Source of the DNA: Octopus vulgaris
Taxonomy: Eukaryota
Length of the DNA: 64,000 nt
Assembly: GCA_951406725.2 (NCBI GenBank)
Contig: CATOCA020000001.1
Coordinates: 8,990,001-9,054,000 of the forward strand
Direction of reading: 5' to 3'
The notes beneath the pieces are model-generated. The model was given only the letters and a program-made list of their open reading frames with translations, was not told where the DNA came from and searched no databases. Below, in pieces: positions 33,236-64,000 of this stretch. Position 1 is the stretch's first letter. The number at the start of each line of letters is the position of its first letter. The position numbers and the translations under genes are program-made.

Positions 33236-33474
33236 TTGGGTTGGTGCATAATTATTGCGGCTATTTTTCAACAAATATTATTCAACAAAAACAATAAAAA
33301 TATTTATCAAAAACATCTTTACATGATCGTCTATCAAGCGAATGGGAAGCAGTTATTGAAGTAGATGGTGAATATGCTCCGGAATAATCATTTAACGATG
33401 TTTTTGTTACATGTTATTGTTTTTGTTGAATAAAATTTGTTGAAAAAAGCCGCAATAATTATGCACCAATCCAA
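33236..33474 (+). mobile_element. Mariner-derived MITE (MADE1/Hsmar1-like TIRs) with TA target duplication
   Basis: TA-TTGGGTTGGTGCATAATTATTGCGG ... CCGCAATAATTATGCACCAATCCAA-TA, TIRs ~60 bp. The interior encodes DRLSSEWEAVIEVDGEY*, a mariner transposase C-terminus remnant. Confidence 0.88.
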
Positions 33475-34279: not shown

Positions 34280-35243
34280 TGTTTTGGGAGGGAAACAATG
34301 AGATTAAGGGAAAGAAAGAGAGTGAGGGAGAGAGAGAGTAAAAGGAAGGAAAGAATGAAAGAGAGTGAGAGAGAGAGAGAAAGAAAGAAAAAATAAAAAA
34401 AGAAGGAATGAAAGAAAAGAGCAAGGAAGGAATAAAGTAACGTGATTCTGTAATAATGCATGAAATGAGAGCGAAAGAGAAAAAGAAAGAAAGAAAGGAA
34501 GGAAGGAAGGAAGGAAGGAAGGAAGGAAGGAAAGAAGGAATGAAGGAAATAAGGAAGTAAAAGAAGGAAGGAAAGAATGGCATTAAGGAAAGTAAGAAGG
34601 AAAAAAGGCAGTAAGGAAAGAACGAAAGAAAGAAAGAGAGAAAGAAAGAAAGGGAGAAAGAAAGAAAGTAACAAGGAAAGAAAGAAAGAAAGAGAGAAAG
34701 AAAGAAAGGGAGAATGAAAGGAAGAAAGGGAGAAAGTAAGAAAGAAAGGGAAACAGAAAAGAAAGAAGGTTAGAAGGAAAAAGAGGGAAAGATAGAAAGA
34801 ATGAAGGGAAAAAAAGAAAAAAGAAAGAAGGAAAGAAAGTGAGAAGGATAAGAGAAGGGTGAGAGGGAGAGAGAGAAAAAGGAGACAAGGAAAGGAAACG
34901 AAGCAACGACAGAAAAAAGAAAGGAAGAAAAATGAAAGACGGATTGAAGAAGGAAAGATGAGAGGGAAGAAAGAAAAAAAGAATGAAGGGTAAGAAGAAG
35001 GAAATGAAAAACAGAAAGAAAAACAAAGAAATAAGGAAAATAAAGGAAGGAAGGAAAGAAAGAAAGAAAGAATGAGAGAAATGAAGGAAGAAAGAAAGAA
35101 AGAAAGGAGAGAAAGAAAGAAAGAAAGGAAAGAATAAAAGAAAAAAGGAAATAAAGAAATGAAGAAAGAAAGAAAGAAAGAAATGAGAAATGAAGGAAGA
35201 AAGAAAGAAACAAACAAACAAAGAAACAAATAAAGAAGGATGA

Positions 35244-35275
<32 letters not shown>

Positions 35276-36700: not shown

Positions 36701-36872
36701 AAGGAGAGAGAAGAGTTTCGAAGTGTCCTTCATTTTCATATGAAACACAAAACCAAACTTTAACATACTTGGCTGTTATTTCTAGCATCACATTTGATCC
36801 CCAACTGGACTATATTTCTCCAGAAGCTTCTTAAAGTGTCCTTCATGATAACAATGTAAAGTATAGCGTAAT

Positions 36873-37232
36873 GGGCTGTTATTTCTAGCAAGATAACAGA
36901 CCACCAATACGTTTTATAGACGCTTCTTCACTTGGTTTCTCTTTCGAGGAAGAAGTCTGACCAGATCCGGGAAAAAGTTTTATAAATGCTTCTTAAATTG
37001 TCTTTCAATTTCGTATGAAAAACAAAGCAACTTTGAGTGTAGTGGGCTGTTATTTCTAGCAAGATACCAGACCACCAATACGTTTCATAGACGGTTCTTC
37101 ACTTGGTTTCTCTTTCGAGGAAGAAGTTTGACCAGGTCCGGGAAAAAGTTTTATAAATGCTTCTTAAATTGTCTTTCAATTTCGTATGAAAAACAAAGCA
37201 ACTTTGAGTGTAGTGGGCTGTTATTTCTAGCA
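36873..37232. repeat. 171-bp tandem repeat, ~2.1 copies
   Basis: GGGCTGTTATTTCTAGCA occurs at 36873, 37044 and 37215. Confidence 0.9.
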
Positions 37233-37494
37233 TGATGTCAAACCAGGTGTAGGAGGATTCTTTGAATAAATGCTTCTTAAATTGTTCATCACTGTCTCGG
37301 CTATTTAAGTTGCTCAATTAAGAACTACACAGTAATTACGTAATTAATGGTTAGTTAAATAATTAGCTTCTGGTAAAATAATTAGCGAGAGAGAAATTTG
37401 AAGGTAAATCTGAAAATATAATTTATTTGTAAGAAAGTAAGGTTTCTTAGGGATAAAGGGAGAGGAAGAGGGAGAGGGTAAGATATAAGGAGGT

Positions 37495-38872
37495 GGGAGA
37501 GATAGAGAGAGAAAGAAAGGAAGAAAGAGTGAGAGAGAGAAACCCTAGGGGAGGGGAGGGATATATTAATGTATGAGGAAGCAGAGAAAGAATGAGAGTG
37601 GGAGAGAGAGAGAGAGACAGAATGTGGGAGAGAGAGAGAGGGAGAGAGAAAGGAAGAAAGAGTGAGAGAGAGAAACCCTAGGGAAGGGGAGGGATATATT
37701 AATGTATGAGGAAGCAGAGAAAGAATGAGAGTGGGAGAGAGAGAGAGAGAGAGAGAATGCGTGAGAGAGAGAGAGAGAGAAAGGAAGAAAGGGAACGAGA
37801 GAGAGAAACCCTAGGGAAGGGGAGGGATATAGTAATGTATGAGGAGGCAGAGAAAGAAGAGAGTGGGAGAGAGAGAGAGACAGAATGCGTGAGAGAGAGA
37901 GAGAGAGAGAGAGAGATAGAAAGGAAGCAAGAGTGAGAGAGAGAAACCCTAGGGAAGGGGAGGGATATATTAATGTATGAGGAAGCAGAGAGTGGGAGTG
38001 AGAGTGGGAGAGAGAGAGAGAGAGAATGCGTGAGAGAGAGAGAGAGAGAAAGGAAGAAAGGGAACGAGAGAGAGAAACCCTAGGGAAGGGGAGGGATATA
38101 TTAATGTATGAGGAGGCAGAGAAAGAATGAGAGTGGGAGAGAGAGAGATAGAATGCGTGAGAGAGAGAGATAGAGAGAAAGAAAGGAAGAAAGAGTGAGA
38201 GAGAGAAACCCTAGGGAAGGGGAGGGATATATTAATGTATGAGGAAGCAGAGAAAGAATGAGAGTGGGAGAGAGAGAGACAGAATGCGAGAGAGAGAGAC
38301 AGAATGCGAGAGAGAGAGACAGAGAGAAAGAAAGTAAGAAAGAGTGAGAGAGAGAAACCCTAGGGAAGGGGAGGGATATATTAATGTATGAGGAAGCAGA
38401 GAAAGAATGAGAGTGGGAGAGAGAGAGAGAAAGAGAGAAAGAAAGGAAGAAAGAGTGAGAGAGAGAAAGCCTAGGGAAAGGGAGGGATATATTAATGTAT
38501 GAGGAAGCAGAGAAAGAATGAGAGTGGGAGAGAGAGAGACAGAATGCGTGAGAGAGAGCGACAGAGAGAAAGAAAGGAAGAAAGAGTGAGAGAGAGAAAC
38601 CCTAGGGAAGGGGAGGGATATATTAATGTATGAGGAAGCAGAGAAAGAATGAGAGTGGGAGAGAGAGAGAGAGAGAAAGGAAGAAAGAGTGAGAGAGAGA
38701 AAGCCTAGGGAAGGGGAGGGATATATTAATGTATGAGGAAGCAGAGAAAGAATGAGAGTGGGAGAGAGAGAGAGACAGAGAGAAAGAAAGGAAGAAAGAG
38801 TGAGAGAGAGAAACCCTAGGGAAGGGGAGGGATATATTAATGTATGAGGAAGCAGAGAAAGAATGAGAGTGG

Positions 38873-38904
<32 letters not shown>

Positions 38905-39190
38905 ATGCGTGAGAGAGAGAGAGAGAGAAAGGAAGAAAGAGTGAGAGAGAGAAAGCCTAGGGAAGGGGAGGGATATATTAATGTATGAGGAAGCAGAGAG
39001 TGGGAGTGAGAGTGGGAGAGAGAGAGAGACAGAATGCGTGAGAGAGAGAGAGAGAGAGAAAGAAAGGAAGAAAGAGTGAGAGAGAGAAAGCCTAGGGAAG
39101 GGGAGGGGTATATTAATGTATGAGGAAGCAGAGAAAGAATGAGAGTGGGAGAGAGAGAGAGAGACAGAATGCGTGAGAGAGAGAGAGAGA
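37495..39190 (+). repeat. Minisatellite, ~13 units of ~105-150 bp with variable (GA)n
   Basis: The core GAAA(C/G)CCTAGGGAAGGGGAGGGATATATTAATGTATGAGGAAGCAGAG recurs from ~37540 to ~39095. Confidence 0.93.
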
Positions 39191-39864
39191 GACAGACAGA
39201 TATACAGTTAGTGAGGGAGAGGAAGAGGTGAACGCTTTTCCAAGGGAGGTGGGCGGTGATTAAAATTAATATATAATGAGGTTCTGAGAGAAAGGAGACA
39301 AAGAGGGAGAAGTGGGAGGATATGTTTTGTAGGGGAGGGAGAAAGAGTATGAAAATGCATTAAGGGTTTAGTGAGGTACAGACAGAGGGAATTAAGAGTA
39401 AAAGCAAGGGAGGGGGAAGCATTGGGTAATATATGAGGAGGTGGGAGAGGGAGGCGAAGAGAAAGAGACAAAGAGGGAGAGCGCGCTTATTGGACGATAT
39501 ATATTTAGTAATAGGGGAAGGGTATGAGTTCATAAAGAAAGCAAAATGGGCGGAGTCAGTCTACATTATGCAAAGTGGTGGGAGGAGTCAACGTTGAAAG
39601 GGTAAGAACAATAACTCTTATTGAATCCCTTTTCGCTTTAAATTCTATTTTTTTCTTGCGCAGAATTTGAAGATTTCCAAAAATGATTTAATGTAAATAA
39701 TAGATCGAAGGGTTTAATATTGCAATTCTTAGCCCTTAATTTCCTCCTCGTAATCTTCACACTGCACCCTGCACCTATTGTGGAGGCAGCTGCTAGAAAT
39801 AGCAGCCAAACATCGCATACTAAATGAAACCTCTTATTTCTTTAATTGCTTCAAAATTTATTTA

Positions 39865-39988
39865 TTAAGTTGAGGAAAATTTCGTGCGTTTGGTCTTTAT
39901 TTTGAAGAATATTTGTTGCTTTTGAATAAATTCTTGCATAAAACAATCATTATTTTAACACGACGCACGGACTTTTCCCTCAATCTAA
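39865..39988. mobile_element. Short degenerate mariner-type MITE with TA flanks
   Basis: TA-TTAAGTTGAGGAAAATTTCGTGCG ... CGCACGGACTTTTCCCTCAATCTAA-TA, imperfect TIRs. Confidence 0.6.
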
Positions 39989-42074
39989 TAGTTTCTATTT
40001 TATAATTGGCATTTGGTCAGATTACTGCAAAGATTAGCCATTGACTGTCCACTACAAAGAGAAGGGAGCAAGAATATGCAATGAAAGTGCAGTTTAGTGC
40101 AGCCGTGCACTGGTTGTCGTCCTATTTTAAGCTGCAAAAATGTGAAAGTAAACTTCGAGAAGGAAAGAGATCAGACCGGAAGTGATGAGAATAGAACAGG
40201 AAACAAGTGAATGCCATCTAACGGAGAACAATTCAGCTCATAGTGACCACGCCTCGACCACCGAAACATCTCGACACACTGTTTTTACTCATCGCAGGCC
40301 GGTCCCATGGATGTGTGACGGAGCTGTGTTGCGGGGAAACAGCTACGAGAACGGAAATCGACGGAAATTGACGCATCTCGACGGTTATGAAGGAGTTCAG
40401 TGTGAAGATATTAAATGCCTTTCGGTATTGCTTCAGATGTTTGACACCCGAATTTCCTGCCTCAGAGCTTCCAGAAAATGGAGATTTTAAATTATATTTT
40501 CTAAAACTGAGCTTCTGATGCTGTAAATTGCGATTATATCGGAATATTTGATGAAAACATTTTTCCTTCTTCAGAAAATTAGTAAATTTTTAATGGAATT
40601 TTTTTATAAATGCCTTTCAGAGTGTGTCAATTACAATTATATCGGAAATGAATATGAGAAAATTAATTTGGTGGATTATTACAGATACAGAGAACAACAG
40701 GTCACATATCGACAACAGAAAATTGTGGTGTGCGTCAGTGTGTGTGTGTGTGTGCTCAATAGTTTTTCTTTCCACATTAAATTCCAATATAATCGCATTT
40801 TACACACACTGTAACGTATTTGCAGAAAATTACCTTAGAAAATAACCCATTTTTTGTTTAAGTTCTGAGCAAACACAGACAATTCGTGTGAATTTTACGA
40901 AACTCATCTTTCCGCCCACAGACAAATTTGTTTCGCTACAAATTCCGATATAATCAGAATGATCACCATCTGAAGCGTATTAACAGAAAATTTAATTAAA
41001 TATGTCCGTTTGGCGGGGAGTTATGAGGAAACAAATTCGGTGCGTCGCACACATCTGTGAGAATGGCTGACTTCCCAAGACGGGTCTTCTGCTGGAAATC
41101 GCTGTTCCAGTCGGGAAGCTTCTCGGCTCTCCTCTCCCGCATCTGTGCGTGTCGGTGGGACATTACCGTCAAATCCAAGCACCATTTGAGTCGTCTCTTT
41201 TCCTCACTAACATCTCTCTCTCTCTCTCTCTCTCTTTCTCTAATTCTTTTTTCTTTCTTTCTCTCAGCCCTACCCAACCATCAGAATCATCCTCACCTGA
41301 CCTAAGACCGACAATGACAGAGAAAGTAGCCGTCCATCTGCAGCTGACATGTACCCTAAGCCTCGACCCCTTGAAGAATCAACGGCTTAAAATGTGTAAG
41401 AAGCCGGTTCCCATTGTTAACAGCATGTAGGTCGACGGCAGAAATATCTGGTCGGTTGTGAAAGATTGAGACAGATGCACAGGTATCTCGACGAAATTCA
41501 GCTGCGGGGAAGTGGCATCTGTCTTTACGATCAACCATGTGTTTCATTTTTCTTGAATCTTTTATTTAAATAAGAAATTTCAGTGTTTTCCCTTTTGTAC
41601 AGACATATTACGTTTATTAAGTTGTCCAAAAATGTCTGACAAATAGAATAATTTGTATAACGAATCTTCGTTGTGGAACAAATCTGAATTTAATCCCAGC
41701 AGGAATATTATGTCTTCATTTTCTTAAAGTTCTAACAATTGGTTCAAAGCTTCTCCATTTCAGATTCATCACACTTCTGTTCTTTATAAAACTTTGCTGA
41801 AATTGGATGCCATTTCCTCACAGAAGAGGAAACTATTGAGAACAAGAATTTTAATAACGTTAATAATGTTAACCGCTTCTTGTAATATTGCAAAAGTATC
41901 TGGAAATATTTTCAGAGAAACCAACACCTCTCAGTGAAGATTGTAATAAGTGACAGAAATAGGGTTTTTATCTTACAAATTTAACTTGAACCCCAATTTC
42001 CCTCCTTATCATAGCTTATGCACCTTTATTACATACTACATTACATTTATACCATCCAAGGCCTAGTTCTATCT

Positions 42075-47246: not shown

Positions 47247-47625
47247 CTAGCAGTATCGCCCGGCGTTGCTCAGGTTTGTAAGGAAATAACTATAAAGCAT
47301 TTTTAGAGAGTTATATCCAAAAAACAGCAAAAAGATGGAAAAAAATGATGGTAAATTTTTTTTTAGTTAAAAAAGGTGGAGTTGAGTCCCCTAGACAGTT
47401 TGCAATTTGTGTTTCTGATTCTCGACCCCATGTCGAATTTATCGATTTTTTCAGAACTGGGGGAACTTTTCAAAATTTTCGCTGCGTTAGTTTTGAACTA
47501 TGACATTGGGCTATGTGTGTGTCAAGTTTCATCAGAATCGGTTGAAAGCCGGGGTCAGGGTGAGGGTACGAGAAAACAGACACACAGAAAACGCACAGAC
47601 AAACTGCCGTTTATATATAGAGAGA
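47247..47625 (-). mobile_element. Non-autonomous Helitron
   Basis: The minus strand starts 5'-TC (47625-47624) and ends CTAG-3' (47250-47247). A subterminal GC-rich hairpin (CCTGAGCAACGCCGGG) is present. Inserted between A and T with no TSD. Confidence 0.8.
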
Positions 47626-47955
47626 TATATATTTCGAGCATTGGTTTATGAATATAATTTTGTGATTAATTCAAACAAACTTTCTAAGATTAAGCATTAT
47701 CTTTAAATTAGGGTTAAATATATAAAATATATTCAAGTAAAGAAAAAAAAAACATTTGAAAGATTTGTTGAGAGGAAAGACGACAAGGTGAGAAAAGATA
47801 AGAATTTAAATGGAGTTTTGTGTTTCTTTTATAAGATTGTTAACATATAAGAGTAACAATTTGAATCAGATAATGTCGTCATTGTGTGTGTGTGTGGATG
47901 GGGGGTGAAACGCTATTCCAGTGGAATACATACACTGTTTCTAGTTCATTAATAT

Positions 47956-47961
47956 TTTATT
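47956..47961 (-). promoter_or_regulatory. Candidate polyadenylation signal AATAAA for the minus-strand gene
   Basis: TTTATT on the + strand, ~170 nt downstream of the stop codon. The AT-rich background makes chance occurrence likely. Confidence 0.35.
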
Positions 47962-48132
47962 ATCAATTAACTAATTAGGAATCATTATGGTAACTATCTT
48001 TGTTCGAGGATCCAGGCTAAAACCTACGTATTTTGTGTGACTATTCCAGAAGCATCCCATCGAATAAAGAAATATAGTCAAAAGGCTGCTAATGCCAATT
48101 GCTCGTAACATATATTGATTCAATATAGGGCC

Positions 48133-50095
48133 TTATCTCTCATAATAAAATAATCCATCAAAACGGTTGTCCAAATTTCCGTAAATCATGATGAAATAAT
48201 CCGAAACATGTATGGCCTTGATGTGGCAGACTTCAATTTCCTGAGAGCTGAGAAAGATTTCGCATTTGCTGTCTACAGATACTTGGTGGATATTGTTATT
48301 AAAATCTGATATGTAAATATTTTCGCCGTGGATGGTCAAGGATTTGTTGAAAATGTTTGGAAATGGTTCCTCACCTTGAATCATTAGTTGTTGACTTCTT
48401 ACCCAATTGTCTCTGTACCAACATACATCGTAATGATCTTCCTTGTACTTAAGAACGACGATGTCTTCATTCGATGTCACACCCATTGCTACAACCTTCC
48501 CCTCCTTCCCTAAATTCACTCGGCCCTTATACTCGTACATTTCACCGCCAATGTGAAGTATGTCTGCGTATGTCCCATATGGAATATTACTACATTCATT
48601 TGGAGCGTCTTCAAACACACATACCAGATTTTTGCCGTTCTTTTTGTACATTAAATTGTATGGTTTTTCAGTTGTGATCTTTTTTAAAAGACACAAATCT
48701 GTATCGAAGAACATCAGTTGTTTATCGTCCCGAAAGAGGACTACAAATGATTCATCGGTCCATTGACATATATCTTGAGCTTCTTTTTCAAATGTTTGAC
48801 TGTAAAGCAGATGACCGTCTCCACTGGTGACCATGAGAGTACATTTATGGAGGAGCACGACGATACTATTGTCTTGTAACATAATTAGCTTAAAAGCATT
48901 AAGAAAACAAAACATCGAATTTGAATCTAGTAAACCAGATAGAGAAAATGAAAGCGGGAACATTGCTGTTCTATGTGGCAGTCTTCTCACTGATATTTCA
49001 TCAATTCCTAACATACTTTCCGCTATGTAATTACCACGTCTTACTTCTATTTCCCTTGATGTACTTCTTCTTTCTCCTCCATCGCCACCGTTTTTAAGTT
49101 TGTTAAATAATTCATTACTGAACATTCCCTTCTTCTTCTGAGATGTAATGGAAGGGAAATGAAGGCCAGAATCAAGATTCGATAACGACATAGATTCCAG
49201 AACCTTCAGTTGGTCCCCATCAATTTTTATAGTATCACATTCAATCATGTTGATATGTACACACCAGTAAATATTTCCCACTTTTCTCCATATTATACCA
49301 TAAGGTACTCGACTTTCCCAAACTTTATATTTCTCCAAGTTTTGTGACTTCAGTTGAAATATTTCTTGTCTGTTAGGGAGTGTGACCAAGATATTTCTTT
49401 CTCCTGTAAAACATACACCACCAACAAAACTTCCAAAATCTCTGTAACATAGCAACTTCCCGTCATCATCAAATAGTTTAACATTTCCACTATTGGCCAT
49501 TTCGCACACAACTGTCTTTCCTTCATCAGAGATATCGATATCTTTTACTTGAACAGGACAATTGTTTGTTTGTAACCGTGAAACGGGGAATTTTTGCCGA
49601 TTAATCTTGTACAAACCTTCAATATATAAGTACGAGTCATAGTTTGCAACAATTCTCGGGCCTTTACAGTTAATACTGTTGAAATCCAACGGACGTTTAT
49701 AATGTCTTTCATTTAAGAATATTCCCTTGTATTCACCGTTCTGCAACAATGAGACAATACGATACTTTTTCGTGTTTTCATAGATGTTCTTCCGCCCAGT
49801 AATGTACAAATAAGTATCATCGGTTGCCATAGAAATGGGTCGGGAATAAATACTGTGCTTAAATGAATATAAATATTGCCCGTTCGGGTTCAGAATAGTG
49901 ATGAGCCTCTCGGTATTGACGATGATGTTGTCATTAGCAATAACTGAGATATGGGTGATATTATATCTGTAGCACATCCAAAATAAGTCTATTTCTCTCA
50001 TAATACGGACAGCTGACTGTATTTCATCGATATATATATAAAACAGGCCGTTTTCAATTTCGGGTATGCGGGTACCACCACCAACATTACTGCTG

Positions 50096-50151
<56 letters not shown>

Positions 50152-52976
50152 GCTACACACCAGTAGATTGTCGGATCGACAAGCGATACAATTGTATCGA
50201 TTTTCCGTGTGGTAAGTTGCCAAGACCAATGGGAATTCCACTTTTAATGTCAGCAGTTGATAGTTATTGGTCGTTATAACCAATGTGTTTGATCGCCAGC
50301 AACACATATGTCTAGGGACAACATTTAACTTGATAGAGTCAACAAGTTGACCATCAAAAGTTAATATCTTCTTAATGTTTTCATTTGTGCTGTCATATAA
50401 AGCAACCAGGTTATTTTCTGTAATAACCAAACAACCAATCTCCACTGGATGTCTATCTCCAAAACTTTGAGGGACAACAACTTCATGAGCTTTATCAGAA
50501 ACTGTGAGATCTTGTAGATACAATCTAGAAGACAACATTTCACTGAGACTGATGTTTCTAGAAAATACATCTACCAGATCGATGAACATGTTAATTTGGC
50601 TTCTTGTGACATGATCTTTCACCAGCAAGTCATGCTCATTTACAGCAAACATGCGGCTGTTGTCTATCAAATGAACACACATTTTATCAATACGTCCACC
50701 ATAGAGATTGGATTGTGTTTTCCCTTGCGACAGTAAAATATTGGGTATCATCTCAATGCTATAAGGACCACCGTCATAACCATAGAGATTGGAGGGTGTT
50801 TTCACTTGGGATGGTAAAACACTTCTTCTCCTCTTCCTGATGATCTTGTAGAAGAATACTGCTTTCTTACCAACAATCAATAGTTTTAGTGTTTCATTTT
50901 CTAACGATAATGATTTCATTACAAAAGGAATATTAATTTTATGAATTATTTGAACTTCATTACAATTTTTAATGTTTAAAATATCTAAATGCGATGGTTT
51001 ATCGCAATAACAAATAATATGACTTTCACCCAGCTTACACACCCGTACATAAGCCTGGTTTAATGCTACACTTATAACTGCCTTTGATACGTTTCCGACG
51101 ACCCGTAATTGCTTCTCTAGAGGTAATGTGACGCCTATCTGATTATAATTCCATCGACATATATCTGTAGCTGTAGACGGCAGAGATAATATAGACACAA
51201 TGTTCCCTTCGTTGGAAATGTATAACAAACAATCATTATATATGTCGGACAACACCAACTGTCCATTTGCCAGATGACATATTTCACCAATGAGAACTTG
51301 GTCATTCTCCTTTTCTTCGAGTCGAATATTTAGATTTTTATTATAAGGATTTTGAAAGGTTACATGACAGTCTGACCAGTCATGGTACTTGTAAAGAAGA
51401 ATCCGACTGAGCAGATCGTCCAGCACATAAGCTGTTCCTTGGAAAACAGCAGCGTGACAGCGAAAGTTTGAAGGAAGTTTCAACTGCCATTTCCTTTGTC
51501 CAGTTATATTGTAACAAGTCATCAAAGACTCTCTCCTGAAGATAACATAGAAGTATAATTTGTCTGTGAAAACATGATGAGGATAGCCATTGAACTCAAT
51601 GTGTTTCTTGGAAAGCTCCTCACCAAAGCTTGAATAAAATAACAAGTTACGTTTCTTTCTGTCTACAACTACAAAATTAATTGGAGTAGCAGCAATGGCG
51701 ACATTGTCATGTTCCAATGAAATTCTGTTTACAATGTCGACATGATCCGTTTTAATCAATAAAATATGTACCTCCACTTTACCTTCATTGGTGGTCAGAG
51801 CCAAACACCTATTTGATACCATATGACACATTTGAATGTAATTGTTTTCGACGTCTATTAAATCACCTTCAGTTAGTTGTGGACAGGTAACATATTGAAG
51901 TTTCCTGTCCTCACTAAAAAGGACAAGAAATGTGTTCGAATCCACTCTGCAGAAAACAGAAGGCTGGAGTTTAAAGGTTAAACATTTTCCACCAAACGGT
52001 TGCCCTTCGTCAGTAACTAATATAGCTTTTAGATCCCGATATATAATTACTACTGAAGAGGCTGACATAGGTAGAATCGTTGTAATGTTGGAGGGGTCAT
52101 CAATATGGATTTGGTTTATCAGGCTCGGGACATGGTCTTGGTGATGGTAAGACAGCCGAGGCCAAAAATCTTTATTTGTCCTAATAATATGTACAAGACC
52201 AAAACGGTCAGTCAAGTAAATATTATTTGTTGCCACACAAATATATCGAGCTTTTATCCCAATTTCTCTTTGGGACACAGCACCGTTTGCTGAAATCTTG
52301 TAAATTACATTTCCTTGCAGAGCGTAAGAATAATTTCGATATACGGTGAGGTCGGTTGGAATATCGATGGAATGGGTCCTCAACTGAAACAAGTGTCTGC
52401 CATCTATTGTGTAACAGCTAATTCTATTTATATTAGCTAAGGCTATTAAGATATGATACTGTGGACCAACTGCTATGTTTCCAACAATTTCTTGCACACT
52501 AAATTTTTCTTCAAATTTATTTTTATCCCAGTCTATGAGATATATTGTCTTACTAAACATTTCTGTCCCTACAAATGTAGAATGTTCGAAATAGGAAATT
52601 GTAAAGAAACTATAATCCAGAGATTTTATGTGGAAACTTGATGGATTAATGAAAACTATTTTCTTGCGGAAAGGAATTGTGGCTAGAACAGTGTGTTCAC
52701 CAATTCTTGTCATGTCTGTGACATTAGAAGAACAATGAAAATCAAAATCACCGCCTGTTGTGGCACAACTTATTAACTTCAAATCTGGTGAATAGGTTAC
52801 TATTCCATTGCAGATTTCAACGATTCTTGAAACTGTGACCAGGTTGTTGGAATCGTTATCGGAGTCTGTGAGCTGCAATATTTTGGACACAGCTGGGCAA
52901 AGGGGACGGAATTTGGATGAATGCGACTTCATAATACTTTTACAGTCAAAACGTGGTATCTGCATGTAGTGATCAT
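48133..52976 (-). CDS. Terminal coding exon (~1614 codons) of an uncharacterised protein with six tandem NHL-like/6-bladed beta-propeller units; upstream exons not identified
   Basis: Uninterrupted 4.8-kb ORF of non-repetitive DNA. Pyrimidine tract and acceptor TTTTATTTCTGTTGTTATTGTTATTCAG|ATGATCAC at 52977/52976 (phase 1 relative to the ORF). A ~260-aa periodic motif recurs (e.g. ATDICRWNYNQIGVTLPLEKQLRVV). No TE domains seen. Confidence 0.85.
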
Positions 52977-55219
52977 CTGAATAACAATAACAACAGAAAT
53001 AAAATTATATTAAATTTTCAAAAGACATGAATGGGTAATATTAATTTGTAACAGCAACTTCCTACGCAATTCGAGTCACAAAAAATATCAAATCTTCTCA
53101 ATTTAATGAAAACATTGCACAACATTCCTACCACACCATTTTCAAGACACTTTCCATTTCATTTATTGTAGATAAACACGGAAATAGCAACATCAGTGGG
53201 GTTACAAGCTGAAAACACTGATATACACCAGCGGAGTTTGTTACTGAAGAGCGATATCCGTGATGATCTGGCTATGTATACCTTGACCACTTCAATTGTG
53301 GTTAATACTAGAAGGTCTACACATGTACAACCACATACTGTACAATGAGGAAATAATTTAATGCATCCCGACTGCTACCACACTCCACCCCACAAAACAA
53401 AACACTGTATTTTGTAAGTTAACTCTGTGATGTTTAACAAGATGAAAGAATGGAATATTTGACGGGTTAGATCTGGGTGTTTTTTACGGAGGCTGTGACC
53501 AGCTGCGTATTGTTATATATATGTGTGTGTATGTATGTGAGTACTAAATATGGCCTGAGTAGCTATTACACGACCAATCCTAAGATTTATGATCTCTTTC
53601 TCTCTCTCTTTCTCCTTCTCTCTTTCTTTCTCTCTCTCTCTCTTTCTTTCTCTCTCTCTCTCTCTCCCTGACCTCATGTTAGACGTTAAAAATTAGATTA
53701 GCCCCAACACCAATTCTATGAATGAATGAGGTAAATAAAATTCGAATAAACAAAACAGAAATTGCCTTTTATCGATTTAGAGAAAACGAATAATTATTGA
53801 TAATTTATAGTCAATAACTTTCTGCACTCCACTTCCTTATTGCTGGGCTAATTCTAGATGCTCTGATTTAAAATACTAATTAGTGTTTTACAAATATACA
53901 GATATATATGAAAATATTCACAGAAATATATAAACCTGTAATTACCCATGTGATCTTTTAGTAATTACTAGTATTTATGGCAATCCAGAAACCTGTAATT
54001 ATCCATTATCTCAGTTGAGATTTGGTCAGTCTATCTCCTAATTTAACATGTATAACTTTGATGTATTTGCAAGTAATTAGTATCCATCGCTACCTACCAT
54101 CACTACCACTATCATCATTGAACGTCGGTTCCCCATTCTGGCAGGGTTTGTACGTTTTGTCAGGGGCTGGCTAGGGAGAAGAATGCACCAGGCTTCACTG
54201 TCTCATTTGGCAGGATTTTACAGCTTGATACTCTTCCCAACACCAACAACCTTACAGTGGGATCTGGATCCACAAGCACTGGTGGGGGTCACCAAAGAAC
54301 TTGGAAGACAAAAAGCCTTTGAGAGGGAGAGCATTGGAGGAGGAGGTGGTCGTGTGTCAGGGGATGACAGGTTCGACTGTGACAGAGGGACTGAAACAGG
54401 TGTCTTATAGTAGAAGACATACATGATTACCCGGTGAGAGGAGGCGGGCAAGAGAAACAGTGAGAGTGAGCAACCAAGGAATGTTAATAAATAATTAAGC
54501 ACTCTGGTACCTCACACACCGTTGTAACTCAGTCTCCATCATTTACTGTTGTCAGCCTCCACCGCTCCTTCGAATCACTTTTTTAATCCTTATTGTCTCG
54601 TATCTTTTAGTCTGCATTCCGATTCTTCTATAATCTCTTCTTCTCCCATCTTAAACATATCAGTGAACAAACACATCATAGAGTAGTGAGGACTAACTTT
54701 CTAATAATTTGGAATGTGACTCAACCTCACTAATGTTGGTGCTATGATCAAATGCTCCCACTACACACTAGGAGGTGGTTGTTGGATGAGAGTTGACACC
54801 GTAAGTTTGAGAGGGAGGTTTAATCTTGCCGAGGACATGACAATCTCTTGTAGTGTTTGTGCCACAATTATATTCACCCAGGACCCTTTGTAAAGTGGTT
54901 GGCGATAAGAAGGGAATACCACCATGAAAAAGCTGGAATGGTTAATTGAGAGGTAATCCTCAAGCAATCATTATGGGTAGTTTACTGTTATGACATGGAC
55001 AGTGACCACCCATCCAGTACATGGGAGCATAGAGAGCAGATGATAAAAGGGAGAGGATGATATCATTTACTGTATTGAAACTTGCAGATAGTGAAAGGGA
55101 GCGAGAAAGAGAGAGAGAGAAAAAGAGAGAAACAAAGAAAGGCGGAGAGAGAGAGAGAGAGCTTGTCTGAGCTGCAAAGCAGCCTTCTACTTGAATAAAG
55201 GTAATATTGAATAGATATA

Positions 55220-55322
55220 ATGGTTGAATAGTGGACGTAATGACAGTGAAAAAAATGGTTGAATAGTGGACGTAATGACAGTGAAAATGGTTGAATAGTG
55301 GACGTAATGACAGTGAAAAAAA
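55220..55322. repeat. Three copies of a ~32-36 bp tandem repeat
   Basis: ATGGTTGAATAGTGGACGTAATGACAGTGAAAA(A)n repeated three times. Confidence 0.9.
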
Positions 55323-55325
55323 ATT

Positions 55326-55942
55326 TGTGTACATATTACATTTACATCTATAAATATACATCTACACATAAAATGCAAAATACAAAGTTATATCTTGATA
55401 TCGCTAGTGATAACAATACTCAAAATATATAACAGACTGGAATTTTTAGCTCTTCTTATTTCTCTGCATTTTATACTTTATAGACAATAGTCTTTTCTTT
55501 AATTTAACTTTTTACTATCCATCTGGACTATTCCATTTCTGCTCGCTAATTTTAGTTTTAATTTAATTCCCATTCATGTGAAACCACTTATTCTAGTTCA
55601 AATCATTGATGCAATTTTATACTAATTGCTATTTTTACTTTTGTTATGTTACGATTATATTATAATTTAGTTTGATTTTAATTATTACTTACTACATATA
55701 ATTCAATTGTTATTATTATTTTTATTGTTAAAGTGAAAGCATCTGACATAAAATAGAGAATTATTTTTGTTTCACTTTTAACACGTAATACTGAAATAGT
55801 GGAGAAGATATGATATTGCTATGGGCTCGCTCTAGGCAAGAAGTTGAACATTTTCGTTGGCCCATGACACTCCCCGGACCCTAAGTAAGGCATATGTAAA
55901 ATCTGAATGAAATTGGTTGTGTAGTTCTCAAGTTTTAGGGAA

Positions 55943-55981
<39 letters not shown>

Positions 55982-56010
55982 CACATTCTCAGTTTTAAAT
56001 ATATAAAGTT
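55326..56010 (-). mobile_element. Non-autonomous Helitron-like element, 3' (CTAG) end missing
   Basis: Near-identical to 61996-62667 but lacks the CTAG/hairpin terminus. Confidence 0.65.
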
Positions 56011-56039
56011 TATATATGTTGTTTTTTAACTCCATCACA

Positions 56040-57185
56040 GTTTGTGCCTTGATCCTATTGCCTCAAGACGTGTCTCTCAGCAAGCTACCGTACCATTGTC
56101 TTCAAGCTTTTGGCATGATTTCTCCTGCTATTTGTAACTTCACTTGTTTCTGCTGATCATTTACAAACGATACACAGCACTACTTATTCGATTTAAACCA
56201 CACTTTTGCCCCAAATGATGAGTTAATCCAGCCTAACCAGAATTATTTGCATATCCTTCTGATCTCTCCTTAGTATTATTAAGTAATCCATGAATGCCTT
56301 CTTGTTGTAATTCACTTGAGCCCTTTCTGCTGATATAAGTAACATCCTCATAACCATCTCAAACCAAATGGCTCATATTGTCAACATACGGCTATTCAAA
56401 TTCCTGTCTCAACACGATGCCAGTCTGTTGTAATATTTTCTGTGATGAACCGCATTGTGAAATCATTATAGCAGCTCCTAATCAGATCTTTAATCTCCTA
56501 TTAATCGTTCATTGCTTCCATCAACCATTTCTATGGTATAGAACAATAAGCATTAGCCAGATCAGGCCATACATCTTTCAAATCAGTTATATTCTCCTTT
56601 CCTTCTCGCATTAATTCCAGATTGAAAATGCTTGTTGCGCACACGCTGGAGGTCCGGTGATTCCAGTCCTCCGGACACATTTGCTCAGATAGCCATTCTT
56701 TTATAGATATGTAGCTGATATCTAAGCCCATGTAAACCTTACCATTCTCTATTGAAATTGTCCTGCTGCCACTTGCTTTGGTAAGTAAACACTTTCTTGT
56801 ATGTACAGGTCATCAATCGGTTCACCTTTATACCCCAAATCTCTTCTTCCAGGTTATGCTTATAACATAACTGAGTACAACGTTTCTATACGTTCTGTGG
56901 TACAGCATCACCTCGTGTTGCACTCTAAACTCTTACTTTCTTCACACAACTCTCAACTTCTTTCTTCCTCTTTCTTCATGAAATCACTAAGCTGAAATAT
57001 TTTGATTCTTCGTTTCATTCGGCATTTCAGACTCTCCATGGCTGGGAATGGTTGATTTCGCTTTAGGTCACTGTACATCTCTTGTATATTCCCATCATTT
57101 TCCATGCCTTATAGCCTGCGACACATGGCATCAACAAACACCATTCTAGTACCATTAGAATGGTCCTTTAGGAACTGCTATCTAA
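56040..57185 (-). mobile_element. Highly degenerate RLE-type (Hero/R2-like) non-LTR retrotransposon RT remnant; also at ~59050-60200 and ~62700-63840
   Basis: Minus-strand pieces VKKVRV*SATRGDAVPQNV*KRC, VWPDLANAYCSIP and KAFMDYL resemble the motifs VKKAR..SAPG..G.PY.VYK.CP, WLDLANAYGSVP and AFMDD, in the correct order. Confidence 0.65.
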
Positions 57186-57189
57186 AACT

Positions 57190-57310
57190 ATTTACCTTAT
57201 TTACATATTTGGCCTGATCTTGTTTGTTGTTAGCACAACGTTTCGGCTGTTATACCTTGCAGCCTTCATCAGGTGCTTTGAGGAAATTCCTAAGGTATTT
57301 TTCGATGTTG

Positions 57311-57378
<68 letters not shown>

Positions 57379-57550
57379 TTCATCATCATCATCATTATTA
57401 ATCACGTCACTGCCTGAAATCAAACACGGAATCTTGGGGTTTTAGAAGTATGCTGTACGCCAGGGGGAAATTATGAACCAAATTTTAGGGATTATGTTCC
57501 TATATTTCCTTAATACAGGTTCCAATATGCTACTCATCTCTACTTCGGAT
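57190..57550 (-). mobile_element. Penelope 3' end/pseudo-LTR fragment; also at ~60208-60574 and ~63846-64000
   Basis: Homologous to 31255-31470. Translation EMSSILEPVLRK matches DMNSLWEPVLRK of the 31.4-kb element. Shares TTGTTTGTTGTT and AAGGTATTTTTCGATGTT. Confidence 0.85.
57232..57277 (-). ncRNA. Minimal type I hammerhead ribozyme motif, copy A
   Basis: AGCAC-CUGAUGA-A-GGCUG(caagguauaa)CAGCC-GAAAC-GUU-GUGCU. Stem I is AGCAC/GUGCU, stem II is GGCUG/CAGCC, and stem III is the palindrome AACGUU. Confidence 0.85.
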
Positions 57551-58660
57551 AGTGGGCCCATTATTGATGCCCTCCACAAAATTGATTGGCATTCCTAAAT
57601 CTCCGCTCTCAATTAAGACATCTTACATATCTCATTTACTTCTCACGTATCCACCTTAATAAAGTAGATGAGGTAATGGCAAACTTGATAGAAGTCAAAA
57701 AGGTAATGTTGATTTATACTCACCAACTGGTTCTACTTCTGTTTGAACTTCATTGTCAACAAGTGCTGGCGTCTCTGAAATAAATATTCTAAATTTTACC
57801 CTTCATAGAAAAACATCTTTATATTTCTTAATAATCAAAATGTTATTCTTGTGAGGTATTCCTGTCGTTGCTGGTCAGCTGGTGACCAGTACTGCTCGGG
57901 TCGACATTTTCATACTTTCTACAGTAATACCATGTAATAGCTCAATATCCAGGTCACAACTAAATAGACTCACCTTCCTATATATCCCAATTATGGCATC
58001 CTACATAATCTAACAATAACCCTATTAAGACATCTATATAATCTTATCATTACCTTCTTTAATTTTTCATTTGAAAACACTGATAATCACCTAGATTAAT
58101 TTTCCCTTTCATCAGTCGGAGCCCTATCAATGATCTGGCATTGTCTTATCACCTGCAGATTTCTCTAATCAACATTCTTCTCCTCTTCTAATTCTGATGT
58201 CAGTGAAGCTGGTCTCCAAACATCTAACCATAAACGCATGTCACAATACATCAAGTAGGATTAATATACACCTGCTCTCTTTTTAAAAGGTTGCTGCTGG
58301 TAATCTTTAATCTTAAATCCCCACATCACAATTCATCGGAATAGGATATGATTCTGGAAACATTTGAAGATATTTCAATGTCATTAATCCTCCTTAATAA
58401 GCAGCTAATTTCAGGTGAACAGTGTTTGCTCCTAAGCAAGTGGAGCAGAAAGTGATATCAGGTATCCCAAAACACTGTACTCTTGTATAGAAACTCATTA
58501 ACTAGACACACAGACACACACACATATACACACATGCACACAATCACACACACACACATACACATATATCTATGTGTGTGTGTATGTATATATGTATATG
58601 TATGTAGATGTGTATGTATATATATACATAGGTTTATACATACATGCATACATATATATT

Positions 58661-58723
<63 letters not shown>

Positions 58724-58761
58724 AGATGGATAGATAGAAAGATAGATAGATGAATAGATTA

Positions 58762-58798
<37 letters not shown>

Positions 58799-58828
58799 GA
58801 GTGAGAGAGAGAGAGAGAGAGATAGATG

Positions 58829-58892
<64 letters not shown>

Positions 58893-60249
58893 TAAGATAG
58901 ATAGATAGATTTATGAACGTACATTTACATATTATTGCAAAGGAATTATATCTGGAATAGTACTGACTCTCAAGAATATATAAGCAAGACAGAGATATAA
59001 ATCAAACTGGAAGCGCCAAATTTATTTTGCATTATGTTTTGATTTTAACTCCATCTCAGTTTGTGCCTTGATCCTATTGCCTCAAGACGTGTCTCTCAGC
59101 AAGCTACCGTACCATTGTCTTCAAGCTTTTGGCATGATTTCTCCTGCTATTTGTAACTTCACTTGTTTCTGCTGATCATTTACAAACGATACACAGCACT
59201 ACTTATTCGATTTAAACCTCACTTTTGCCCAAATAATGAGTTAATCCAGCCTAACCAGAATTATTTGCATATCCTTTTCATCTCTCCTTAGTATTATTAA
59301 GTAATCCATGAATGCCTTCTTGTTGTAATTCACTTGAGCCGTTTCTGCTGATATAAGTAACATCCTCATAACCATCTCAAACCAAATGGCTCATATTGTC
59401 AACATACGGCTATTCAAATTCCTGTCTCAACACGATGCCAGTCTGTTGTAACATTTTCTGTGATGAACCGCATTGTGAAATCATTATAGCAGCTCCTCAT
59501 CAGATCTTTAATCTTCTCTTAATCGTTCATTGCTTCCATCAACCATTTCTATGGTATAGAACAATAAGCATTAGCCAGATCAGGCCATACATCTTTCAAA
59601 TCAGTTATTTTCTCCTTTCCTTCTTGCATTAATTCCAGATTGAAAATGCTTGTTGCGCACACGCTGGAGGTCCGGTGATTCCAGTCCTCCGGACACATTT
59701 ACTCAGATAGCCATTCTTTTATAGATATGTAGCTGATCTCTAAGCCCATGTAAACCTTACCATTCTCTATTGAAATTGTCCTGCTGCCACTTGCTTTGGT
59801 AAGTAAACACTTTCTTGTATGTACAGGTCATCAATCGGTTCACCTTTATACCCCAAATCTCTTCTTCCAGGTTATGCTTATAACATAACTGAGTACAACG
59901 TTTCTATACGTTCTGTGGTACAGCATCACCTCGTGTTGCACTCTAAACTCTTACTTTCTTCACACAACTCTCAACTTCTTTCTTCCTCTTTCTTCATGAA
60001 ATCACTAAGCTGAAATATTTTGATTCTTCGTTTCATTCGGCATTTCAGACTCTCCATGGCTGGGAATGGTTGATTTCGCTTTAGGTCACTGTACATCTCT
60101 TGTATATTCCCATCATTTTCCATGCCTTATATCCTGCGACACATGGCATCAACAAACACCATTCTAGTACCATTAGAATGGTCCTTTAGGAACTGCTATC
60201 TAAAACTATTTACCTTATTTACATATTTGGCCTGATCTTGTTTGTTGTT

Positions 60250-60295
60250 AGCACAACGTTTCGGCTGTTATACCCTGCAGCCTTCATCAGGTGCT
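60250..60295 (-). ncRNA. Minimal type I hammerhead ribozyme motif, copy B
   Basis: Same as copy A apart from one stem II loop substitution; core and stems intact. Confidence 0.85.
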
Positions 60296-60328
60296 TTGGG
60301 GAAATTCCTAAGGTATTTTTCGATGTTG

Positions 60329-60402
<74 letters not shown>

Positions 60403-61930
60403 TTCATCATCATCATCATTATTAATCACGTCACTGCCTGAAATCAAACACGGAATCTTGGGGTTTTAGAAGCATGCTGTACGCCAGGGGGAAATTATGA
60501 ACCAAATTTTAGGGATTATGTTCCTATATTTCCTTAATACAGGTTCCAATATGCTACTCATCTCTACTTCGGTTAGTGGGCCCATTATTGATGCCCTCCA
60601 CAAAATTGATTGGCATTCCTAAATCTCCGCTCTCAATTAAGACATCTTACATATCTCATTTACTTCTCACGTATCCACCTTAATAAAGTAGATGAGGTAA
60701 TGGCAAACTTGATAGAAGTCAAAAAGGTAATGTTGATTTATACACACCAACTGGTTCTACTTCTGTTTGAACTTCATTGTCAACAAGTGCTGGCGTCTCT
60801 GAAATAAATATTCTAAATTTTACCCTTCATAGAAAAACATCTTTATATTTCTTAATAATCAAAATGTTATTCTTGTGAGGTATTCCTGTCGTTGCTGGTC
60901 AGCTGGTGACCAGTACTGCTCGGGTCGACATTTTCATACTTTCTACAGTAATACCATGTAATAGCTCAATATCCAGGTCCACAACTAAATAGACTCACCT
61001 TCCTATATATCCCAATTATGGCATCCTACATAATCTAACAATAACCCTATTAAGACATCTATATAATCTAATCATTACCTTCTATAATTTACATTTGAAA
61101 ACGCTGATAATCACCTAGATTAATTTTCCCTTTCATCAGTCGGAGCCCTATCAATGATTTGGCATTATCTTATCACCTGCAGATTTCTCTAATCAACATT
61201 CTTTTCCTCTTCTAATTCTGACGCCAATGAAGCTGGACTCCAAACATCTAACCATAAACGCATGTCACAATACATCAAGTAGGATTAATATACACCTGGT
61301 CTCTTTTTAAAAGGTTGCTGCTGGTAATCTTTAATCTTAAATCCCCACATCACAATTCATCAGAATAGGATATGATTCTGGAAACATTTGAAGATATTTC
61401 AATGTCATTAATCCTCCTTAATAAGCAGCTATTTTCAGGTGAACAATGTTTGTCCTAAGCAAGTGGAGCAGAAAGTGATATCAGGTATCCCAAAATACTG
61501 TACTCTTGTATAGAAACTCATTATCTGTACACACACAAACACACAAGCACATACACACACGCACACATGCACACACACACACACATATCTATATGTGTGT
61601 GAATGTATATATGTATATGTATGTAGATATAGATGTATGTTGATATATATATATATATATATATATTTCTATATATAAATATATGTGTATATATTTATAT
61701 ATATATATATATATGTGTGTATATATTTATATATATATATATATATATGTGTATATATTTATATATATATAAATACATGTTTATGTATCATATATGTATA
61801 TATATATATATATGAACGTTCATTTACTTATTACAGCAAAGGAATTATATTTGGAATAGTACTGACTTTCAAGAATATATAAGCAAGACAGAGACATAAA
61901 TCAAACTGGAAGCGCCAAATTTATTTTGCA

Positions 61931-62667
61931 CTAGCATTAAAGACCCATCGTTGCCGTGTCATAGTGCTAGTGCATGTATATATGTGTATATATTTGTGTA
62001 CATATTACATTTACATCTATAAATATACATCTACACATAAAATGCAAAATACAAAGTTATATCTTGATATCGCTAGTGATAACAATACTCAAAATATATA
62101 ACAGACTGGAATTTTTAGCTCTTCTTATTTCTCTGCATTTTATACTTTATAGACAATAGTCTTTTCTTTAATTTAACTTTTTACTATCCATCTGGACTAT
62201 TCCATTTCTGCTCGCTAATTTTAGTTTTAATTTAATTCCCATTCATGTGAAACCACTTATTCTAGTTCAAATCATTGATGCAATTTTATACCAATTGCGA
62301 CTTTTCCTTTTGTTATGTTACGATTATATTATAATTTAGTTTGATTTTAATTATTACTTACTACATATAATTCAATTGTTATTATTATTTTTATTGTTAA
62401 AGTGAAAGCATCTGACATAAAATAGAGAATTATTTTTGTTTCACTTTTAACACGTAATACTGAAATAGTGGAGAAGATATGATATTGCTATGGGCTCGCT
62501 CTAGGCAAGAAGTTGAACATTTTCGTTGGCCCATGACACTCCCCGGACCCTAAGTAAGGCATATGTAAAATTTGAATGAAATTGGTTGTGTAGTTCTCAA
62601 GTTTAGGGAAACACACAGACAGACAGACAGACAGACACACATTCTCAGTTTTAAATATATAAAGTTT
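61931..62667 (-). mobile_element. Non-autonomous Helitron-like element
   Basis: The minus-strand 3' end is GACACGGCAACGATGGGTC..CTAG at 61931. The empty site GCA|TTATG is seen at 59031/59032. Internal (GACA)n; the 5' TC end is degenerate. Confidence 0.75.
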
Positions 62668-63887
62668 ATATATGTTGTTTTTTAACCGCATCACAGTTTG
62701 TGCCTTGATCCTATTACCTCAAGACGTGTCTCTCAGCAAGCTACCGTACCATTGTCTTCAAGCTTTTGGCATGATTTCTCCTGCTATTTGTAACTTCACT
62801 TGTTTCTGCTGATCATTTACAAACGATACACAGCACTACTTATTCGATTTAAACCACACTTTTGCCCCAAATGATGAGTTAATCCAGTCTAACCAGAATT
62901 ATTTGCATATCCTTCTGATCTCTCCTTAGTATTATTAAGTAATCCATGAATGCCTTCTTGTTGTAATTCACTTGAGCCCTTTCTGCTGATATAAGTAACA
63001 TCCTCATAACCATCTCAAACCAAATGGCTCATATTGTCAACATACGGCTATTCAAATTCCTGTCTCAACACGATGCCAGTCTGTTGTAACATTTTCTGTG
63101 ATGAACCGCATTGTGAAATCATTATAGCAGCTCCTAATCAGATCTTTAATCTCCTATTAATCGTTCATTGCTTCCATCAACCATTTCTATGGTATAGAAC
63201 AATAAGCATTAGCCAGATCAGGCCATACATCTTTCAAATCAGTTATATTCTCCTTTCCTTCTTGCATTAATTCCAGATTGAAAATGCTTGTTGCGCACAC
63301 GCTGGAGGTCCGGTGATTCCAGTCCTCCGGACACATTTGCTCAGATAGCCATTCTTTTATAGATATGTAGCTGATATCTAAGCCCATGTAAACCTTACCA
63401 TTCTCTATTGAAATTGTCCTGCTGCCACTTGCTTTGGTAAGTAAACACTTTCTTGTATGTACAGGTCATCAATCGGTTCACCTTTATACCCCAAATCTCT
63501 TCTTCCAGGTTATGCTTATAACATAACTGAGTACAACGTTTCTATACGTTCTGTGGTACAGCATCACCTCGTGTTGCACTCTAAACTCTTACTTTCTTTA
63601 CACAACTCTCAACTTCTTTCATCCTCTTTCTTCATGAAATCACTAAGCTGAAATATTTTGATTCTTCGTTTCATTCGGCATTTCAAACTGTCCATGGCTG
63701 GGAATGGTTGATTTCGCTTTAGGTCACTGTACATCTCTTGTATATTCCCATCATTTTCCATGCCTTATAGCCTGCGACACATGGCATCAACAAACACCAT
63801 TCTAGTACCATTAGAATGGTCCTTTAGAAACTGCTATCTAAAACTATTTACCTTATTTACATATTTGGCCTGATCTTGTTTGTTGTT

Positions 63888-63933
63888 AGCACAACGTTTC
63901 GGCTGTTATACCCTGCAGCCTTCATCAGGTGCT
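63888..63933 (-). ncRNA. Minimal type I hammerhead ribozyme motif, copy C
   Basis: Identical to copy B. Confidence 0.85.
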
Positions 63934-64000
63934 TTGGGGAAATTCCTAAGGTATTTTTCGATGTTGTTGTTATTATTATTATTATTACATTTTTTTTCTT

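Follow-up and report, generated by a model that had tools for sequence, protein, structure and literature searches.

A long Octopus vulgaris exon predicted to encode six NHL-type propellers, and its apparent exchange between ankyrin-RING heads

Which protein does a single, very long exon of Octopus vulgaris belong to? The window analysed here is a stretch of 64,000 nucleotides (nt) from GenBank assembly GCA_951406725.2 (contig CATOCA020000001.1, positions 8,990,001 to 9,054,000, forward strand). Positions without a prefix refer to this window, and other places in the genome are given in the form C31:3.20M. The frame in question runs from 48133 to 53004 on the minus strand (1,623 codons from stop to stop) and is the only long complex one among the 42 listed open reading frames (ORFs) of the window that is not a retroelement. 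We found that it is predicted to encode six propellers of the NHL type, and that four near-identical copies elsewhere stand behind ankyrin and RING exons. We propose, at a probability of about 0.6, that the exon occupies the usual place of a Death exon in an ankyrin-RING gene family, being joined by splicing to the linker exons of that family, and that complete copies are likely cytosolic ubiquitin ligases that bind their targets through the propellers. The proposal builds on the fold class (by prediction), the splice joint, the way exons are ordered and agree in phase in paralogues, the presence of a Death exon in 7/7 non-propeller relatives examined, and the exchange of the propeller exon between heads.

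Six predicted propellers and an octopod gene family

The original prediction described a giant single exon with an open frame, and this description holds: one frame forms a coding exon of 1,613 codons, and a pyrimidine tract and AG lie directly ahead of 52976. The six motifs that it quoted were all located, at residues 85, 338, 602, 887, 1184 and 1399. Searches of the ORF against Pfam and against solved structures in the PDB gave nothing significant. The exon protein has no hydrophobic segment of membrane-helix length, and Pfam revealed no transposase or reverse-transcriptase domain in the ORF (no search for terminal repeats was made). The exon and its parts are given below, with structural alignments as Z, root-mean-square deviation (rmsd) and number of residues aligned.

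48133..52976, minus strand: coding part of the terminal exon, phase-1 start, 1,613 codons and a stop
52153..52905, minus strand: unit 1 (residues 24-274), predicted six-bladed NHL-like propeller; TRIM2 NHL Z 20.3, rmsd 3.4, 238 aligned; Lin41 Z 20.4, rmsd 2.9, 233 aligned
51373..52143, minus strand: unit 2 (residues 278-534), predicted six-bladed NHL-like propeller; Brat NHL Z 21.6, rmsd 3.3, 248 aligned
50590..51342, minus strand: unit 3 (residues 545-795), predicted propeller, last blades of low confidence; 7uhy_E Z 16.0, rmsd 3.8, 230 aligned
49591..50496, minus strand: unit 4 (residues 827-1128), predicted six-bladed NHL-like propeller that includes a poly-Ser loop; Brat NHL Z 24.6, rmsd 3.3, 252 aligned
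50089..50154, minus strand: microsatellite loop of 22 Ser in unit 4, its length varying among copies by multiples of three
48970..49572, minus strand: unit 5 (residues 1135-1335), predicted incomplete propeller of about 18 strands with a disordered insert; hardly covered by the fold search
48136..48957, minus strand: unit 6 (residues 1340-1613), predicted six-bladed propeller, net charge -14; Drp35 Z 18.8, rmsd 3.8, 256 aligned

The fold was examined in two AlphaFold models, each built on 39-row alignments, with mean predicted local distance difference test scores (pLDDT) of 72.8 and 70.5. About 24 strands were predicted in each of units 1, 2, 4 and 6, about 22 in unit 3, and about 18 in unit 5. 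Unit 5 appears incomplete, with its disordered insert, and the C-terminal part of unit 3 has low pLDDT (neither unit was modelled alone). In structural alignments units 2 and 4 had NHL domains as their best matches, and unit 1 had them among its best; units 3 and 5 were barely covered. The predicted models of units 1, 2 and 4 superpose on NHL domains at Z 20-25 and rmsd about 3 over 230-250 residues. Foldseek returned only generic multi-propeller proteins at template modelling (TM) scores of 0.31 or less, and the Pfam NHL profile had no match in the ORF at expect values (E) up to 10; a relative, P0091, reached 18.5 bits against a cut-off of 20. With a homologue as query, the top clusters of the ESM Atlas were molluscan TRIM2-like NHL proteins (score 0.94). 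The exon thus encodes six NHL-type propellers by prediction. The earlier claim of six NHL-like propellers stands in that all six beta-rich units come closest to this class, but unit 5 appears to be an incomplete propeller.

The units are homologous, although weakly (pairwise phmmer E 2.5e-5 to 0.5), and BLASTP found no internal repeat in the exon protein. Profile-profile comparison gave only two strong pairs, 3-6 (96%) and 4-6 (94%), followed by 4-5 (58%), 2-6 (39%) and 3-4 (35%). An alternating (A-B)x3 pattern had been suggested, arising by triplication of a two-propeller module. The pairs expected to be alike under this pattern reached just 27% (1-3), 9% (1-5), 1% (3-5) and 5% (2-4), so we retain neither the alternation nor the triplication. 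An (ABC)x2 arrangement is likewise unsupported, with 1-4 at 6%, 2-5 at 2% and 3-6 alone high.

To date the family appears confined to octopods, in agreement with the lineage restriction proposed earlier: a protein search that scored 7,992 candidates gave 56 matches, 54 of them named as Octopus and 2 as Argonauta. Among 1.84 billion representative proteins there were 28 matches, 26 strong and 2 remote, and the 8 new strong ones that were looked up are all Octopus. The two remote matches are B-box proteins with one propeller, one of them from a freshwater mussel, and both match unit 3 (E 3e-5 and 2e-4), the unit whose sequence picks up such proteins. One of these two proteins aligns with its whole propeller to unit 4 of the family profile at 96%. 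Together with the Atlas clusters and the structural alignments, these matches bear out the assignment to the molluscan B-box/TRIM-like type of NHL-like propeller.

This genome holds 171 matches to unit 3. Loci were counted from 150 of these 171, after second-half matches and 7 short ones with a stop had been dropped. Among those 150 there are 9 copies at 92-100% to the window exon and 93 further loci, 80 of them on C28, which puts the size of this octopod family at about 100 loci in the genome. Of the 93 further loci, 33 have a frame of at least 1,650 codons. At 17/20 loci inspected, mostly picked for long frames, a single ORF begins at a Met, continues through a helical N-terminus of 130-240 residues and extends to the stop. 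In the nine near-identical copies, a phase-1 acceptor replaces the helical N-terminus. The 1.9 kb ahead of the acceptor showed no remnant of the parental helical N-terminus; used as a query of the Atlas, this N-terminus gave sub-threshold unnamed clusters only. The window lineage differs from 17 other members by 0.8-1.1 synonymous substitutions per site (dS), with a best identity of 57%; by this sequence measure it is old within the family.

Within this family we also observed that the main clusters of single-ORF six-propeller genes lie at about 2.4-25 Mb of C28 and at C27:8.37-8.65 Mb. At least three types of N-terminus occur there on similar propeller bodies, which suggests N-terminal exchange in these clusters too. 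A divergent member with 33% identity (P0091, P0110 and P0111, in three Octopus species) has a weak Pfam NHL match and is possibly nearest to the ancestral gene.

Linker exons, ankyrin-RING heads and the Death exon

The acceptor proposed before 52976 is real, has phase 1, and is used in contigs of 4/4 sequencing runs. The runs come from four studies, are presumed (guessed) to be RNA, and derive from animals that differ from the reference individual. In contigs of all four, 52976 is joined to 57724 with GT..AG ends. X1 depth was 25-87 over the exon bins, compared with 0-3.5 over the first five intron bins. The following features describe the joint and its surroundings.

52977..57723, minus strand: intron with GT..AG ends, skipped in contigs of 4/4 runs
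57724..57774, minus strand: linker exon of 51 nt and 17 residues, phase 1 at both ends, of the ankyrin-RING family type
60748..60798, minus strand: second copy of the 51-nt linker exon, with a weaker donor
55401..63987, no strand assigned: about three tandem units of roughly 3 kb, 98% alike, bearing linker exons
47603..48132, minus strand: likely 3' untranslated region, on which the contigs that cover the coding end continue

In two runs a second 51-nt exon stands between the 52976 and 57724 exons; this variant has no counterpart in the window and is present in seven other copies. In O. sinensis, a single 17-residue linker exon distinguishes two RefSeq isoforms. This genome has 32 occurrences of the 51-nt exon, ahead of all nine propeller copies and at seven other places. 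The upstream exons foreseen by the original prediction are therefore confirmed in the form of a spliced exon, but not as carriers of B-box-type domains: in paralogues they encode ankyrin repeats and a RING, and none was found upstream of the window copy.

Of the seven linker places without a propeller, six lie just after ankyrin exons (150 of 486 ankyrin candidates scored). A Death-like exon followed the linkers at 7/7 such loci fetched, six from the linker search and one from the ankyrin search. Two Death-like exons scanned with Pfam gave E 2e-5 and 0.015, and the exon has 140 matches genome-wide. Since ankyrin and Death exons flank the linkers at the non-propeller loci, these loci form a second family, ankyrin-RING-linker-Death. 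The head domains of the paralogues were identified as Ank (E 3e-16) and a zf-C3HC4_3 RING (E 1e-6 to 2e-9), and public models are labelled MIB2-like. Mind bomb SH3 repeats (PF18346) gave 18 matches (40 candidates scored), on C13 and C26 only and none at the linker loci.

Members of the ankyrin-RING-linker-Death family lie on C31, C29, C30, C10 and others, with linkers made of a variable number of phase-1 exons of 51-78 nt. Sixteen of the Mind bomb SH3-repeat matches fall at C26:0.73-2.54 Mb (two others on C13), a separate expansion of mind bomb-like genes.

Four of the nine propeller copies stand behind ankyrin, RING and linker exons on the same strand, at C31:3.20M, C31:4.67M, C31:10.51M and C28:8.15M. 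None of these has a same-strand Death exon within 100 kb behind it among the 140 Death matches. Of the three RING exons inspected, those of the 3.20M and C28 copies end in phase 1 and that of the 4.67M copy is shifted; the linkers of the inspected headed copies measure 51 or 72 nt. When two ankyrin exons and the RING are compared, the C28 head shares 96% identity with a Death-ending gene at C31:6.77M, and the C31:3.20M head shares 80% with a Death-ending gene on C10. These two heads are only 51% alike, but their propeller exons are 99.0% alike in DNA. As judged from these sequences, this shows an exchange of the propeller cassette between heads, the cassette having moved long after the heads diverged. 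Linker introns are common to all nine copies, whose extents differ.

The window itself keeps traces of the same surroundings. Its intron above 54836 resembles the linker introns of the C10 ankyrin-RING-Death gene at 66-74%, and a further stretch lies on the other side of the exon:

32807..40217, minus strand: sequence as found behind the Death exon in ankyrin-RING-Death genes, 73-91% to C10

Among 165 loci, a 1.4-kb piece of this stretch recurs at 92-98% in five places, four of which lie behind Death exons. The window itself holds no Death exon. This layout, with the flanks kept and the Death exon absent, fits a replacement of the Death exon by the propeller exon.

It is established that MIB-type ankyrin-RING proteins are cytosolic E3 ubiquitin ligases, that Death domains serve in recruitment to signalling complexes, and that the top face of NHL propellers binds proteins or RNA. 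We propose that the cassette goes back to a single-ORF propeller gene that was deprived of its helical N-terminus and captured by way of a phase-1 acceptor, and that recombination in the repeated linker introns would move the cassette between heads. The RING would recruit a ubiquitin-conjugating enzyme (E2) and ubiquitinate what up to six propellers capture. The targets would most likely be foreign or stress-related proteins, and we infer this role in innate defence because of the clustering, the turnover and the Death-bearing sister genes. More tentatively, the two clustered families, of about 100 loci each, may form a modular system of intracellular recognition that recombines via repeated phase-1 linker exons, with ligase heads trading their tails. 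Head-tail combinations would then differ among individuals, giving a germline-shuffled innate-defence repertoire.

The window copy, selection and competing explanations

Homology of the window copy to its paralogues stops 12.6 kb above the acceptor. The 230 kb upstream contain one gap of 100 N, which lies 184 kb up, beyond the Death exon of another gene. Unbroken frames are found only in the window copy and at C31:2.78M, and 7/9 copies carry stops or frameshifts. The window copy is most likely a recent duplicate that lost its head.

An intact ORF had been taken to imply selection. This does not follow here: the window copy is one of nine that are 92.7-99.6% alike, and its private codon changes are only three (2 synonymous, 1 non-synonymous), so that an open frame is expected from recency. 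In a rough model, a neutral copy with about 5 changes stays open with a 58% chance. Selection shows in the ratio of non-synonymous to synonymous substitution rates (dN/dS) of the lineage, as estimated by sequence comparison, and not in the open frame alone. For the window exon dN/dS is 0.19 against C31:2.78M (p 6e-5) and 0.22 against the C28 copy (p 5e-4), which are its closest near-intact copies; it is 0.29-0.67 for the remaining six copies and 0.34-0.46 against the 17 other family members at dS 0.8-1.1. Pooled over 41 close pairs of other members, units 1-6 gave 0.31, 0.51, 0.59, 1.12, 0.68 and 1.04, values that are only a hint because the pairs are not independent and conversion is likely.

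Several observations weigh against a complete ankyrin-RING-propeller protein. The 230 kb upstream of the window copy yielded neither an ankyrin nor a RING exon, and the other unbroken copy, C31:2.78M, has no found head either, meeting an assembly gap 18.9 kb upstream. No headed copy in the assembly has an unbroken propeller frame; two copies have lost one base at 127, one has a stop at 358, and one has lost a base within an A run at 1448. In the C28 RING, Asp stands where a His ligand is usual. Ankyrin-RING and the exon are connected in the gene models P0009, P0062, P0095 and P0109, but these are predictions, and they are not independent because the exons of the two checked match this genome exactly. 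No read or contig was observed to join RING to propeller, although the stretch aligned contains no RING exon. At listed differing sites (40 of 120 rows) the contigs mostly carry paralogue alleles and not the window's; at sites such as 52846 and 52855 the paralogue allele stands at full depth in all four runs. Expression is thus supported at the level of the subfamily, not for the window copy itself. Finally, the matches include no close O. bimaculoides orthologue (best 55%).

These points leave room for a headless product: transcription would start at a promoter within the linker array or close to it, and the propellers alone would act as a scaffold or as a decoy in competition with full-length members of the family. 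We regard this as unlikely. Both unbroken copies are without a found head, an in-frame Met stands at residue 4 and O. sinensis models start there or in a linker exon, and contig alleles fit C31:2.78M and C28:8.15M about equally. Yet a gap cuts the 2.78M copy, those O. sinensis models lie on short contigs, and one contig extends 157 bases upstream of the acceptor, past two linker exons. A second reading keeps the RING and has it add ubiquitination while the propellers bind RNA, in post-transcriptional control as by Brat and LIN-41/TRIM71. The best structural matches are indeed the RNA-binding NHL domains of Brat, Mei-P26, Lin41 and NHL-2, but at an identity of just 8-12% and with non-RNA propellers within about 1 Z (PknD 21.2), and the units are near neutral or acidic (net charge +6 to -14). 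Birth and death in a family of about 100 copies, together with dN/dS near 1 in units 4 and 6, would fit changing ligands better than a conserved RNA motif, and we consider RNA binding rather improbable.

It is quite doubtful that the copies are debris of segmental duplication, with at most one functional gene, and that the head swaps and other copies reflect non-functional shuffling or partly assembly error. The seven broken copies agree with such a history, as do their private non-synonymous to synonymous changes (18 to 5 in 3.20M, 42 to 17 in 11.75M), the gaps near two copies, and the count of 33/93 other family loci with a frame of at least 1,650 codons. On the other hand, spliced contigs from four studies, with no frameshift in the listed long pieces, and dN/dS near 0.2 among the closest copies show a maintained gene. 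The window copy may be dead, a point on which this explanation and our proposal agree. Least credible is a fusion in which the window exon is read from immunoglobulin (Ig) receptor exons that lie 60-155 kb further up, so that the protein would combine Ig domains and tyrosine motifs with a tail of propellers. The same strand does hold five Ig exons and seven tail exons with tyrosine motifs upstream, the inspected tail exons have phase-1 boundaries, and no terminal exon was identified for them. However, this Ig copy is without the membrane exon present in its C5 relative, its N-terminal domains were not found, Ig exons lie upstream of 0/5 other propeller copies searched, and 0/17 Ig-family proteins run on into propeller sequence. 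An Ig copy at C31:6.8M gave no alignment over the stretch fetched.

The Ig gene is an Octopus type I Ig-superfamily receptor at C31:9,116,000-9,197,000 (L027-L035), with several Ig domains and a cytoplasmic tail of short repeated tyrosine-motif exons. Its relatives lie at C5:27.4-29.3 Mb, on C28 and on C31; there are 13 matches, with four identical copies outside the C5 cluster.

Known systems and further observations

The proposed ankyrin-RING-propeller protein shares with the TRIM-NHL proteins (Brat, Mei-P26, LIN-41/TRIM71, TRIM2) and with molluscan B-box/coiled-coil/NHL-like proteins a six-bladed NHL-like fold, here predicted. The single-propeller B-box proteins provide a link in sequence, and a RING lies ahead of the propellers in 4/9 copies (none found for the window copy). 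Unlike TRIM-NHL proteins, it has six propellers and not one, its ORF goes unmatched by Pfam NHL, and its MIB-type RING derives, together with ankyrin repeats, from a different gene family. No B-box was found in the ORF or the scanned family proteins; the upstream exons of the paralogues are ankyrin and RING. Mind bomb proteins (MIB1, MIB2) have in common with the paralogues' heads, though not with the window copy, ankyrin repeats followed by a zf-C3HC4_3 RING. The heads here differ in lacking Mind bomb SH3 repeats at their loci, in having one RING found per head, and in a C-terminus formed by a Death domain or six propellers.

Plant nucleotide-binding leucine-rich-repeat receptors (NLRs) with integrated domains are a clustered, fast-turnover family that gains new terminal modules by exon capture; the likeness would be one of mechanism only, with no NB-ARC or LRR here. 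Molluscan inhibitor of apoptosis (IAP) RING ligases with shuffled domains are reported to show lineage-specific tandem expansion of RING-bearing genes and novel domain architectures (PMC8917759, PMC7831173), as here. They differ in that no BIR was seen in our heads, in the partner domains, and in being bivalve and not octopod. In the main text of three cephalopod genome papers (PMC9068888, PMC10700109 and PMC13218726) a term search met no ankyrin, death domain, NHL or propeller, and their supplements may list these families; one passage of PMC13218726 mentions a decapod RING expansion. In literature searches at record level, no description turned up of the six-propeller family, the ankyrin-RING-Death family or their exchange. 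The parts are known; the two families and the exchange are apparently undescribed.

The analysis names two large octopod gene families, whose public records read uncharacterised or MIB2-like, and shows a recent exon exchange between them. To our knowledge, cephalopod intracellular immunity is poorly mapped. If the proposal is true, a RING ligase whose Death module was swapped for six diverged propellers would be a TRIM-like combination of ligase and recognition rebuilt from other parts. It provides testable candidates, with defined heads, a defined splice joint, and units changing at different rates. Even if one copy is alive and the rest are duplication debris, this would be a clear case of a new gene by exon capture.

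Some minor features were also observed. At C1:216,930,000-216,965,000 there are about ten tandem units of roughly 3.5 kb in which two ankyrin exons form one uninterrupted match. A Death match follows about 700 bases behind the ankyrin, the matches mostly contain stops, and the array looks like an amplified processed copy. A family 10 fucosyltransferase gene (L097:1902-5338, C30:3.28 Mb) lies directly behind an ankyrin-RING-Death gene. Within the window, tandem arrays occupy 6641-8466 (121 bp, about 15 copies) and 3780-4675 (94 bp, about 10 copies). Broken frames of non-LTR (long terminal repeat) retroelements, endonuclease- or reverse-transcriptase-like by eye from their translations, lie on the plus strand at 285-2011, 10598-13589, 17030-17497 and 22867-24282.

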